From the IMG/VR virus record IMGVR_UViG_2634166457_000008: DNA of 6,591 bases; one strand, 5' to 3'. The notes under the pieces were generated by a model. The model was not told where the DNA came from. It worked only from the letters and a program-made list of their open reading frames with translations, and did not search any database. Position 1 is the first letter of the stretch. Each line of letters begins with the position of its first letter. Both the position numbers and the translations under genes were made by a program. This document shows positions 75 through 6,591 of this stretch, one piece after another. The DNA comes from a virus (lineage: Duplodnaviria > Heunggongvirae > Uroviricota > Caudoviricetes).

Positions 75-100
75 AAAATAAAAAACCCGCCAGCGGCGGG
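75..100 (-). terminator. Rho-independent terminator on the minus strand downstream of the neck genes
   Basis: GC-rich hairpin CCCGCC-agc-GGCGGG at 86-100, followed on the minus-strand transcript by UUUUUUAUUUU (plus-strand A-tract 75-85). It is strand-specific: on the plus strand no T-tract follows the stem. Confidence 0.6.
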
Positions 101-121
101 TGGGTAAAATCATTAACGACC

Positions 122-466
122 TCAGGCTATTACCTGAAATTCAAGCGTGGCTCTGCTCAGACGGGAATCAGGATCATAACCCTGCGTTTTAGAAATAACG
201 GAGGGTACAAGTTGCCTTACCGCATCAAGCGCCTGTTCTCGGATATCATCTGCGTCATCAGGCACCGTTGCCCAGACATCGATCTGCACGGTAATTCTGG
301 ATTCAGCCTGACCATCAAGCACATCAGACGCCGTGTCAGACACCACAGAAAACACCAGCCACGGCGGAGATACCGCAGGCTTTCCCTCCGTCAGCGGGAC
401 CACATAAGGATAAACCTGTCCTCCGGCCAGTTGAGACAGCAGGGAATACAGTGTGGCTTCCCTCAT
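122..466 (-). CDS. DUF3168-like neck protein (tail completion / tail-to-head joining, SPP1 gp17-like)
   Basis: 114-aa ORF whose ATG at 466-464 overlaps the upstream TGA in an ATGA arrangement. Pattern (LYSLLSQ...VYPYVVP...PWLVFSVVSD...RITVQIDVWA) resembles DUF3168 proteins, and position after the gp10-family gene matches the conserved neck-module order. Confidence 0.7.
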   Translation of the reverse strand: MREATLYSLLSQLAGGQVYPYVVPLTEGKPAVSPPWLVFSVVSDTASDVLDGQAESRITVQIDVWATVPDDADDIREQALDAVRQLVPSVISKTQGYDPDSRLSRATLEFQVIA

Positions 467-1811: not shown

Positions 1812-3017
1812 TTACGCTGCTGCAATCTTCAGCAGTTTGATGGCCTGCGAATCGACCAGCATGCCGCCGGTGCGCTTGGTGGTATAAAAACCGACAAACG
1901 GTTTATTGGTGTACGGGTCACGCAGAATGCGGGTACCGATACGGTCAACGATGGTGTAACCCCGTTTGAAGTTACCGAATGCAATGGCTTTCGCATCAGC
2001 GGCAATATCCGGCATCTGTTCGTTTTCAGCGATACCGTAACCCGCCAGAGAGGACGGCTGCCCCAGCTCCAGCCCCGGACGCCACAGATAGTTACCCTCG
2101 GTGTCTTTCAGCAGACGAATGGCAAACAGGCTGTTGTTGTTCATCATGAACTTCGCGCCGGTGCGGTGTGCCTTACGCAGCGTGTAAATCAGTTTGATAA
2201 TGGCATCTGCGGTCACTGCCGTCGCTTCGCCGGATACAATATGCTGAAGTTTGCCGAACGCCCGGACCTTGTCGGTTTCATCAGTGGACTCATACGCCAG
2301 GAACCCTTTCGGCTTCTTGGTACCATCGCCGGTGGTAAAGGCAATTTCTTCCTGTTCGGCAAATTCGGTTGCCAGCTCGCTGTTGATCCAGGCCTCCACG
2401 TTGAAAAAGGCATCATCCAGCATTTTCTGGGTGGCCTGCGGGTTACCGTAGATTTCCCCCATGAAAGGTTCAATCAGGCCCAGTTTTGAGGTGGCAGTCT
2501 GGGAGCGCGCGTCAGTCTCGCCCACCCATCCGGAAGCCGTGCCGCCCAGATTCACCAGTTTTTTGTAGTCGGAACCACCAACGGTGATCACCGTGGCTTC
2601 CTGACGCATCACCACTTCATCTTTCAGCAGGTTGAGAATGTTACGATCCAGTTCTTCCGGCACGGCGTAGCCACCGTCTTCATCAGTGCCCACCTGCAAT
2701 GCCTTACGCTCCAGATCGCGCAGACCGTCTTCACGGCCTTTACGCAGGAAGCCCACAAACGCCTCTTTATGCTCGGTGGCCAGTTTATTTTGCGCACCAC
2801 CTGCCGGACGTTTCAGCTCAAGCAGCTCTTTTTCAAGGTCGCTTTTGAGATTTTCCAGCTCGCTGAGTTTTCCGTTCAGGGTTTCCACCTGCCCGGCAAG
2901 TTTGCCTTTTTCCTGCTCAATCGCCTCCACGCGCTTGTCGTTCTTTGCTTTGAAGTCGTCAAACTTCTGCTGCAGCTCCTGCGCGACCTGTTCGACATCT
3001 TTAATATCAACCGCCAT
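1812..3017 (-). CDS. Major capsid protein, HK97 fold (Phage_capsid family) with N-terminal coiled-coil delta (scaffolding) domain
   Basis: 401-aa ORF with ATG at 3017-3015 and AGGAG 7 nt upstream, following the protease TAA; TAA stop at 1812-1814. The first ~70 residues are E/K/L-rich heptad-like sequence (KLAGQVETLNGKLSELENLKSDLEKELLELK), followed by the characteristic GGYAVPEE segment and a capsid-sized body. Gene order protease then capsid is canonical. Confidence 0.9.
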   Translation of the reverse strand: MAVDIKDVEQVAQELQQKFDDFKAKNDKRVEAIEQEKGKLAGQVETLNGKLSELENLKSDLEKELLELKRPAGGAQNKLATEHKEAFVGFLRKGREDGLRDLERKALQVGTDEDGGYAVPEELDRNILNLLKDEVVMRQEATVITVGGSDYKKLVNLGGTASGWVGETDARSQTATSKLGLIEPFMGEIYGNPQATQKMLDDAFFNVEAWINSELATEFAEQEEIAFTTGDGTKKPKGFLAYESTDETDKVRAFGKLQHIVSGEATAVTADAIIKLIYTLRKAHRTGAKFMMNNNSLFAIRLLKDTEGNYLWRPGLELGQPSSLAGYGIAENEQMPDIAADAKAIAFGNFKRGYTIVDRIGTRILRDPYTNKPFVGFYTTKRTGGMLVDSQAIKLLKIAAA

Positions 3018-3031
3018 CGTATTTCTCCTGA

Positions 3032-3682
3032 TTAGAAGTTCAGATTTTTCAGTGCATTCAGTGCAGAGCCCACATCCTCAGCGTCGCGCAGGGACAGTGC
3101 GCCATAACCCCCGGCCATGAATGCTTTGGCCTGGGTACGGGAGAGTCCGACATCACGCAGGACTCTTTCGATTTTTTTCTGTTCGGGGATTTCCCCGCGG
3201 ACCAGCGCGTTCTTGACGTCGCTGATCCGCGCCTCGTCGTTAGACGGAAACGTCACCAGACTGACTTCCCAGAGGTCGATTTCTTTCAGCAGAAAGGCTT
3301 CTTTCGTCCGGTCGTATTCCCAGTCCTTCAGGACGTACCCAATAGAAAGGCCGGTTAACGAACCGGCCTTCATGTGTGCATGTGCGCGTTTTGCCAGGGG
3401 ATCATCATCAATGAGCAACCGCCCCCTGACGTAAAGCCCGATATCGTCTTCCTTCATTTCGGTGTAAACACCGATGGGCTCATCCATGCGGTGCTGCCAG
3501 AGCAGCGCAGGCAACGCTTTTCTGTCACTCTACGCCCGCAGGGAAGCAGCAAATGCCCCGGACATCACCACATCATCGTGACTGTCCTTTACACCAAAGA
3601 CGGAGCCATATCCTTCAAACTCACCGGAGTCACTGACAGATTTCAGACTCAGCGGTACATCAAGACGTTGTTTCGTCTGCAT
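3032..3682 (-). pseudogene. Prohead protease (HK97 gp4 / peptidase S78-like) interrupted by an in-frame TAG at 3530-3532
   Basis: Track ORFs 3530..3718 and 3032..3514 are in the same minus-strand frame and separated only by one TAG. The N-terminal piece carries the S78-like start (GEFEGYGSVFGVKDSHDDVVMSGAF); the downstream piece carries the conserved ALLWQHR...PIGV and GLSIGY segments that I take to contain the catalytic His and Ser by analogy to HK97 gp4. Likely start is ATG 3682-3680 (AAGGA 8 nt upstream), overlapping the portal 3' end by 23 nt; ATG 3718 has no Shine-Dalgarno. The track's start for the downstream piece is a TTG with no convincing ribosome-binding site. Confidence 0.75.
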
Positions 3683-4901
3683 TGGCGTTATCCTTCTGCT
3701 TACCGGCTTTACTGCCATCGGAGGGTTTCGTGGTCATGTTCATCGGTGTGAGATAGACATCCCCACCGGGACGCGGATTCATATCTTCCAGGTCGCGGCA
3801 GTCATTGGGAGAGTAAATTCCCCAGTTAATCCCGGTGGCGTAGGCTTCAAAACGGGACTTCATATCCCCGCGCAGTAACGCCCCGGCGTTAAATTTGGCG
3901 TAATAAACGCCCTGCTTACTTTTTCGTACCAGTCCGGTGTTGATCCGCTGTTCGATGCGGGTCAGATACGGCACCAGTGAATAGTTGATAAATCCGAGCC
4001 CCAGTTCTTCGATATTGTTGAAGGTGGCGCGATCGGTGTTCTGCACCATGTGCAACGGTACCCGGAACAGACGACAGATTTCTTCAAGCTGAAACTTGCG
4101 GGTTTCCAGGAACTGGCTGTCCTCGGCGTTCAACGCCATCGACTTCCAGTCCAGCCCCATCTCAAGGATCATCGGGCGGTGAGCATTGCCAAGCCCGGTG
4201 TGACGCTCCTCAAAATCTTTCTTCAGGCGCTCATAAGCCTGATCTGACAGCGTCTGCTCTGTACGCAACACACCCGACGTCACCGCGCCATTGCTGAACA
4301 GTCTGGCCCCGTGCTCTTCGGTCGCTGCCGCCAGCGATATTGCCTCGCGGGCATAGGCGATGGGATTCAGCCCCACCAGTCCGTCCAGCGTCAGCGTGCG
4401 CACATGCCAGATATCCTCCTGGCTCAGTACATCCGTGGAGCCATCCGGGAATGTGACCTGATAGACCGGCTCCCAGCTACTGTTAAGCTTCGGTACCACA
4501 CAGCCGGGATCGACGGGCAGCAGTTCAGCCACTTCGCCAAATGCTTTCACTTTGTAGGCGTAAAAGTTTCCCCTCAGGCACAGACAGGTGACCACCAGCT
4601 CCCAGAACTCCTGCGGCGTCATATAGCCATTAGGATGCGTGGAGATCAGCTTATGCAGACGTTCGCCGGTGGCTCTCTGTTTCAGGCTGCCGTTCATGTG
4701 ATACAGATTGCAGGGCAACATCCCGACCGACTCTGCCAGCACCCTGACGCAGGAAAAAACCGCCGTCAGTCGCATGGCCCGCTGACTGCTGATCTGCTTT
4801 CCGGTATAGGTGTCGTAAGACAACCCGATGGCATCCGCCAGCTCTGCTGGCGTGGTCACCGGCGCGTCACTTTTTCGTTGAAATAATCCCGAAAAGAACA
4901 C
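3660..4901 (-). CDS. Phage portal protein (HK97 family)
   Basis: 413-aa ORF with GTG start at 4901-4899 and GGAGG 7 nt upstream; TGA stop at 3660-3662. Size, composition and acidic C-terminal tail are typical of HK97-type portals, and it sits between terminase and prohead protease. Confidence 0.9.
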   Translation of the reverse strand: MFFSGLFQRKSDAPVTTPAELADAIGLSYDTYTGKQISSQRAMRLTAVFSCVRVLAESVGMLPCNLYHMNGSLKQRATGERLHKLISTHPNGYMTPQEFWELVVTCLCLRGNFYAYKVKAFGEVAELLPVDPGCVVPKLNSSWEPVYQVTFPDGSTDVLSQEDIWHVRTLTLDGLVGLNPIAYAREAISLAAATEEHGARLFSNGAVTSGVLRTEQTLSDQAYERLKKDFEERHTGLGNAHRPMILEMGLDWKSMALNAEDSQFLETRKFQLEEICRLFRVPLHMVQNTDRATFNNIEELGLGFINYSLVPYLTRIEQRINTGLVRKSKQGVYYAKFNAGALLRGDMKSRFEAYATGINWGIYSPNDCRDLEDMNPRPGGDVYLTPMNMTTKPSDGSKAGKQKDNANADETTS

Positions 4902-5083
4902 TATTTACCTCCGCCGACAGACGGCTGTGTACGGTCGAGATATCGCGCCACCAGCCACGACCAGAACAGGCACAGCACCCCGGCAACAACAAAACCCGCC
5001 GGGGGATAAATCAGCCAGGCACCATACGCCAGCAAAAGCGCACCCAGCACGCCCACCAGTGGCGCGAGAATTATCAGAAACAT
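4901..5083 (-). CDS. Small predicted membrane protein (60 aa, two hydrophobic helices), function unknown
   Basis: ATG at 5083-5081 preceded by GAGGT 4 nt upstream, directly after the terminase TAA. Translation [48 protein letters not shown] plus a short charged tail gives two hydrophobic segments. Its last codons GGA GGT AAA TAG supply the GGAGG Shine-Dalgarno for the portal, and its TAG overlaps the portal GTG start by 1 nt (TAGTG). Confidence 0.5.
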
Positions 5084-5094
5084 AATGACCTCGG

Positions 5095-6591
5095 TTAAAG
5101 CGAGCGGATGCCCACGCTGACCAGATGTTCAGACAGATCCGGCTCCGGTTCACCGCCATTGACCAGCATCCGGCTCATTGCTGTAAACATCGCAACAGGG
5201 CCGTCGATTTTGGCTTCAGGCGTGGATTTATTCGGGAAGATATTGTCGTTTTTGTCCGGTTTTACCGTAACGTTAGACATCATCCAGTTCATAACCGGGT
5301 GATTGCTGTGATGGAAACGCCCGGCATAGACCAGTGATTCCGTTTCCTTCATGGCCTCTGACAGATTGCGGACCGTCTGCGGAACCTCCACCAGCGGTAT
5401 CCCTTCTTCAGCCAGTGCCAGGCTGAACTGCATCGCGCTCCACGGGTCAAATCCCAGTTCCCTGAGGTTTTCACCACCAATCCATTCCAGTAAGTCACTT
5501 TTTATCTGAGCATGATCGATAACATCACCATCCGTCAGAATCAGCTTATCCATCTCCGCCCACTTCCGGTAAAGTTCTGCCTGCTGCCGCGAGCATCGTT
5601 CCAGCCGTCCTTCCGGGAGCCAGAATTTAAAATCGGCATGAACATGCCCGTTATCCGTTCGCCAGAGTTTTGCCGCCGCACAGATATCAATCTTATGAGC
5701 AAGGTCAACGCCGACCCACATGGGATACGTTTTCAGCTCATGTCGTGGGGCAATGTATTCGCACTTCTCCCACTTAATCATGTCCATCCAGGCAGACTCT
5801 GCTGTTACCCACACATTCATGTGTTTGGTAAAAAAATTCACCCGCGCAGAGACCTGCTCCTTCGCTTTTTTTGCCAGGCGACGCAGATCATCCCAGCGTT
5901 TACAGATGCCCAGGCCCGGATTCGCTTTCTGCCAGACCGTTTCATCAAACGGATCATCTCCCTCATCGAGGGTGTAAATAATCGCAAAGTAGGAGTCGTC
6001 TTTTACCGCGCCCCCCACGTCGCTGTTATAGCCTCGCAATACCTTGATGGCGTAATCGCGTTGCTCGTAACAAATCCCTTCCTTGTTAAAGCCAGCCGTG
6101 GTGATGCCAAATAACAGGGACTGCAGACGGGCACCGGTTGCCGTTTCCAGAACGTCCCACACGTCACGGGTTTTATGTGCATGCAGCTCATCAATAATGG
6201 CGCAGTGGATGTTCAGACCATCCAGGTTGTTTGCATCCGAGGAAAGCGGTTCAAATTTTGATGCGCTCTGCTCCTGGTAAATCGCCAGCTTGTTGAAATC
6301 AAACAACCGCCCGAGTGTCGACCGGGCTTTTCTGACCATATTTTTGGCGTCTTCAAACACGATTCTGGCCTGGTCACGCGTGGTTGCGGCTGAATACACC
6401 TCAGCACCGCCTTCACCATCTGCCCCCGTCATATACAGGCCGATACCCGATGACAGGGTTGATTTTGCGTTTTTACGGGCGACTTCGTTGTACGCCGTCC
6501 GGAACCGGCGCACCATCACCGGGCGTCCGCTGCCATCGCTGCGCATGACAACTTCCCCGGTCTCTTCATTCACCAGCGGAATGACAAAACC
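5095..6591 (-). CDS. Phage terminase large subunit (HK97/Terminase_1-like), partial: N-terminal part including Walker A lies beyond the window edge
   Basis: Minus-strand reading frame is open from the window edge (6591) to a TAA stop at 5095-5097; the track's start at 6573 is a GTG inside this open frame. Translation contains a Walker B-like motif ([11 protein letters not shown]) and a C-terminal RNase H-like nuclease region ([16 protein letters not shown], further acidic residues). No Walker A is visible, so about 100 or more residues are probably missing upstream. Position immediately upstream of portal fits the canonical order. Confidence 0.9.

Follow-up and report, generated by a model that had tools for sequence, protein, structure and literature searches.

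An in-frame amber codon in the prohead protease gene of an HK97-like head module from Escherichia coli M114

The head module and its interrupted protease gene

The window, by which we mean the whole stretch of 6,591 nucleotides that was analysed and to whose first letter all positions refer, carries all of its long genes on the minus strand. They are given here from the 6591 end downwards:

5095–6591, minus strand: large terminase gene (terL), its 5' end lost in a 590-N gap of the scaffold
4901–5083, minus strand: YmfR-like membrane ORF of 60 aa
3660–4901, minus strand: portal gene (Pfam), 413 aa, intact
3032–3682, minus strand: whole prohead protease gene of the HK97 family (Peptidase_S78), between the portal and major capsid genes
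1812–3017, minus strand: major capsid protein (MCP) gene, 401 aa, intact, with the Phage_capsid domain (Pfam) at residues 115–398
after the MCP gene, in order: a 62-aa ORF, a head-tail connector, a head closure gene, a gp10-like gene and a gp17-like tail completion gene
122–466, minus strand: the gp17-like tail completion gene

Besides the protease gene, the other nine genes were intact, and with the TAG base described below repaired, 10 of 10 genes in the window were open. An Rfam scan of the window returned no match. The 3' end of the portal gene overlaps the start of the protease gene by 23 nt (3660–3682), which is consistent with translational coupling; the overlapping portal stop and protease start lie in different frames, and the arrangement is the same in all relatives. 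In the MCP, an N-terminal stretch of ~114 residues with a weak coiled-coil-type match precedes the Phage_capsid domain and is presumed to be the substrate of the protease. The gene therefore sits where an S78-type protease is expected, between the portal gene and an MCP gene carrying such an N-terminal stretch, and HK97 gp4 holds the same position between the portal and major capsid genes. At the far end of the module, a strong terminator-like hairpin (85–101, minus strand; ACCCGCC-GCT-GGCGGGT, then a run of T) separates the gp17-like gene from the major tail gene, which starts at about 62, and HK97 has putative terminators at comparable positions.

The protease gene itself is made up as follows, with codons counted from the ATG at 3682:

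3533–3682, minus strand: N-terminal protease fragment of 50 codons (MQTKQRL...AASLRA), starting at ATG 3682
3530–3532, minus strand: in-frame amber codon TAG, codon 51
3032–3529, minus strand: rest of the protease frame, codons 52–216 plus the stop at 3032–3034, holding the His64 and Ser113 codons
3512–3514, minus strand: TTG of Leu57, a possible restart 15 nt downstream of the TAG
3491–3493, minus strand: codon of the conserved His64, downstream of the TAG
3485–3487, minus strand: ATG of Met66, a possible restart past the His64 codon
3344–3346, minus strand: codon of the conserved Ser113, downstream of the TAG

A first-pass annotation of this DNA had described two protease fragments in the same frame, separated by a single TAG at 3530–3532, and minus-strand translation confirmed this. 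Indeed, 3032–3718 was read as a single frame with one internal stop, across which the translation ran from GAFAASLRA through the stop into SDRKALPALLWQHRMDEPIGV and on to GLSIGY. The plus strand reads CTA at 3530–3532 and, compared with relatives, the codon has changed from TGG (Trp) to TAG by a G>A substitution on the coding strand at window base 3531.

Against the Peptidase_S78 profile (PF04586), the N-terminal fragment matched positions 5–47 with 18.8 bits and the C-terminal fragment positions 54–156 with 82.3 bits, the cut-off being 21, while an intact homologue with 99.4% identity covered positions 6–158 of 165 unbroken (110.4 bits, E 1.3e-31). As both fragments are collinear on one profile, they represent one gene split by one codon and not two genes, in keeping with the one S78 gene originally proposed. 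The converse possibility, a small conserved gene of its own at the N-terminal side, was discarded, since this piece aligns with the beginning of the S78 profile and all relatives have it joined to the remainder. An uninterrupted frame for the full enzyme, including the C-terminal capsid-targeting tail, was not found, with TAG standing at codon 51, and the locus is thus a disrupted protease copy (a pseudogene or an error) rather than a functional member of the family.

The ATG at 3682 is the start annotated by PGAP in relatives, and with this start the 50-aa N-terminal product without the His and Ser holds as first described, both residues lying downstream of the stop. Starting instead at an in-frame ATG further upstream, at 3718, would lengthen the N-terminal product by 12 codons to 62 aa. 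Past the stop, the only in-frame start candidates are the TTG at 3514 and the ATG at 3487. The earlier view that the downstream piece could count on little more than a weak TTG was borne out, as no good Shine-Dalgarno sequence precedes TTG 3514 (the closest is a GAG 13 nt upstream). This codon is TTA in many relatives and is therefore no conserved internal start. A product restarted at ATG 3487 would also be without His64.

Conserved residues, predicted fold and the codon in relatives

The first-pass annotation had asked which sense codon homologues carry at this position, and the answer was TGG, the ancestral codon, in every relative examined: E. coli RM10740, phage SfI, phage ST64B, some 950 records of complete E. 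coli genomes and the seven prophages, described below, whose portal protein is identical to that of the window. Over the whole protease gene, DNA identity to SfI/SfII/SfIV, ST64B (Sb5) and the gene of the E. coli prophage protein WP_001193633.1 was 96.7–99.4%. These relatives share the neighbouring TerL, YmfR-like 60-aa protein, portal and MCP, but differ from the M114 copy in carrying TGG at codon 51 and encoding 216–228 aa. They also illustrate the mosaic nature of the head module: near-identical portal, protease and MCP (protease 96–98%) are combined with contractile tails in SfI/SfII/SfIV/ST64B, whereas in M114 and many E. coli prophages the same head module comes with a lambda/HK97-like siphovirus tail (gp17, Ig-domain major tail, tail assembly chaperones and tape measure).

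In a BLASTP comparison, the intact homologue shared 36% identity with HK97 gp4, and His64 and Ser113 aligned with gp4 His65 and Ser114. The latter two are reportedly the catalytic residues of gp4, in a numbering said to be that of Duda et al. 2013. Both His64 and Ser113 were invariant in 26 members of the subfamily and also in a divergent eight-phage alignment that included phages of Pseudomonas, Burkholderia, Bacillus, Arthrobacter, Mycobacterium and Vibrio. Trp51, the residue replaced by the stop, was invariant in the 26 subfamily members, down to 77% identity, and was also found in actinophage sequences; its segment falls in a gap of HK97 gp4. Unlike gp4, the M114 frame is interrupted at codon 51 and yields no full-length enzyme.

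A search of the PDB by sequence found no true relative of the protease. An AlphaFold (AF2) model of the intact homologue (mean pLDDT 74.6) had the T4 gp21 protease as its best structural match, followed by herpesvirus proteases, so that the predicted fold appears to be that of T4 gp21 and the herpesvirus assemblins. Residues 1–50 formed three core beta strands and the start of a helix (45–53) in this model. The 50-aa product is thus without the conserved His and Ser and, as far as the predicted fold can tell, comprises only three of the core strands.

These comparisons bear on the idea that the amber codon is real but tolerated, be it that the host has a suppressor tRNA, that UAG-A is read through by near-cognate tRNAs, or that translation restarts at TTG 3514 and the fragments complement each other. 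TAG followed by A, as found here, is a comparatively weak termination context in E. coli; the in-frame TTG 15 nt downstream would keep both His64 and Ser113; and all other genes of the module are intact. Yet the stop is conserved in no relative, and neither the window nor the 9.8-kb scaffold contains a tRNA gene. The TTG, in whose place many relatives have TTA, lacks a usable Shine-Dalgarno sequence, and a product started there would, according to the model, lack the three core strands. Moreover, supE-type suppression inserts Gln, which may not be neutral at a Trp that is invariant in the subfamily. We therefore regard a tolerated amber as highly improbable. Sequence comparison excludes conserved or programmed readthrough, as none of the relatives examined carries the stop. 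Of the three readings initially offered for the stop (a defective prophage, an amber or suppressor-dependent element, or a base-call error), a recent mutation or a sequencing error consequently stands, and conserved or programmed readthrough falls away.

Rarity of the TAG allele and the assembly it comes from

The protease gene was present in about 1,100 of 5,426 complete E. coli genomes (at least 95% identity), and a single E. coli genome can hold up to five copies of the module. Among 951 records of complete E. coli genomes (945 genomes) and 14 plasmid records, none matched a 71-mer centred on the TAG exactly, the best hit in either set being 98.6% with one mismatch, and exact 20- and 36-mers containing the TAG gave no hit in collections of genome, viral and metagenome contigs. 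When the 50-aa N-terminal product was looked up exactly, 10 places came back, among which a true stop was found in one contig, KQ241493.1; the other nine were contigs ending within 0–2 nt of codon 50. A polymorphic or assembly hotspot at codon 50 was considered and judged less likely, the nine contig ends being probably a by-product of querying very many E. coli assemblies with an exact-length sequence. For the 62-aa N-terminal ORF the look-up found nothing on record.

The closest relatives were intact. A portal protein identical to that of the window was encoded on seven other contigs, from unrelated genome and metagenome assemblies, and an intact 216-aa protease gene was present in 7/7. The sibling prophages in GCA_902842135.1 and GCA_051592065.1 showed two base differences from the window in 6240 and 5356 bases, respectively, namely a synonymous CCT>CCG in terL (window 5917) and the TGG>TAG change. 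Given that these siblings are intact and only two bases away, the stop is derived, private and very recent. Against five complete E. coli genomes, 35 positions were private to the window, comprising 30 synonymous and 4 missense differences and 1 amber; with 30 of 35 synonymous, the module was under purifying selection until recently. Judged by its composition, this set of differences is real variation under purifying selection and not poor-quality sequence.

The window is the reverse complement of 3212–9802 of scaffold KQ241493.1 (9,802 bp) in the E. coli M114 draft assembly GCA_001186315.2. At position 6591 it is bounded by the 590-N gap (scaffold 2622–3211), to which the small terminase gene (terS) has lost its 3' half and terL about 80 codons; at its opposite end the window stops together with the scaffold, within the major tail gene. 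Both terS and terL hence look truncated because of a gap in the assembly and not through deletion. The 151-aa C-terminal protease product corresponds to GenBank KNA38907.1, which is on record on one contig only, from E. coli M114.

Such a fragmented short-read draft raises the question of whether the TAG could be a base-call, consensus or assembly artefact, the true M114 base giving TGG, or a collapsed mixture of related prophage copies. The allele is known from this single assembly, the scaffold covers a repeat-prone prophage region and is short, gapped and ends in tail genes, as is typical of repeat-limited assembly, and the module can occur up to five times per genome; at the site itself, the difference from near-identical siblings is one base. 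On the other hand, the change is a substitution rather than a homopolymer indel, its context GCGT[G/A]GAGT contains neither a Dam nor a Dcm site and is not of low complexity, and the rest of the window is free of frameshifts and stops, its differences being mostly synonymous, like real variation. Substitution errors in a high-coverage consensus are also far rarer than real divergence between siblings. We consider an artefact unlikely, though it is the chief rival of the reading favoured below.

Origin and likely consequences of the amber codon

The reading that we favour, with a probability of about 0.72, is that of a real, very recent and strain-private nonsense mutation, Trp51 to amber, in a lambdoid prophage of E. 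coli M114, which would block capsid maturation. It would have arisen while the prophage lay dormant in the lysogen, a state in which selection does not act on head genes. The coding-strand change is G>A, and among spontaneous mutations of E. coli the G:C>A:T transition is the most frequent. Under neutrality, about 3.6% of the possible single-base changes in the genes of the window would create a stop, which makes one nonsense change among two differences a roughly 7% event, mildly unlikely and unremarkable for a dormant prophage.

Translation of the mutated gene would end after 50 residues, ahead of His64 and Ser113, leaving the procapsid without a packaged active protease. If the prophage behaves like HK97, the delta domain of the MCP (its N-terminal scaffold) would then stay uncleaved and particles would stall as Prohead I, with neither maturation nor DNA packaging. 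No infectious virions would be expected. The remainder of the module appears to be in full working order. HK97 Prohead I is held by the scaffold domain and does not expand until the scaffold has been digested, and this digestion triggers maturation (PMC10275583); it is by this analogy that we infer a loss of capsid maturation in the M114 prophage. Nonsense codons in a phage head protease are not without precedent. In Salmonella phage SPN3US, the am59 and am66 mutations of gp245 truncate the protease and affect head maturation, and a truncation that loses a catalytic residue is expected to be inactive (PMC7411985). The SPN3US ambers are laboratory-selected, conditional mutations propagated on suppressor hosts, whereas the M114 allele appears to be a spontaneous one in the draft genome of a lysogen with no known suppressor.

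This comparison also brings up the possibility that the M114 allele was itself isolated on purpose, as a conditional-lethal amber head mutant of a laboratory phage or strain. Amber mutants are classically obtained by TGG>TAG, among other changes, and the TAG is the sole damaging change in the module. However, the record is the whole-genome draft of an E. coli isolate, M114, and not a phage stock, our literature search found no paper on this strain, and prophages almost identical to this one are present in unrelated genome and metagenome assemblies, which together make this the least probable of the explanations weighed here. Only slightly more credible, and a shade less so than the tolerated amber considered above, would be a real amber that is being maintained, either as a possible early step of domestication, with lysis and immunity kept and no release of virions, or because natural UAG readthrough, or the protease of a second, related prophage in the same cell, keeps the prophage viable.

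Returning to the favoured nonsense mutation, it would be an ordinary event of a known kind, the first inactivating change in an HK97-like head module that is intact in all other respects, unless the base call is in error. Beyond annotation it matters little and raises no new question. For annotation, the entry KNA38907.1 calls for a label as pseudogene or possible sequencing error and not as a 151-aa 'prohead protease', and the M114 prophage can be predicted to be non-infectious unless complemented. As a clean case of a first inactivating hit, two bases away from intact siblings, it could also aid studies of the rate of prophage decay.

Some other homologues seem to be damaged or wrongly called. 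A Salmonella enterica homologue carries a stretch of ~25 residues inside the protease that looks like the product of a double frameshift, and two E. coli entries, 283 and 346 aa long, resemble fusions of portal and protease.
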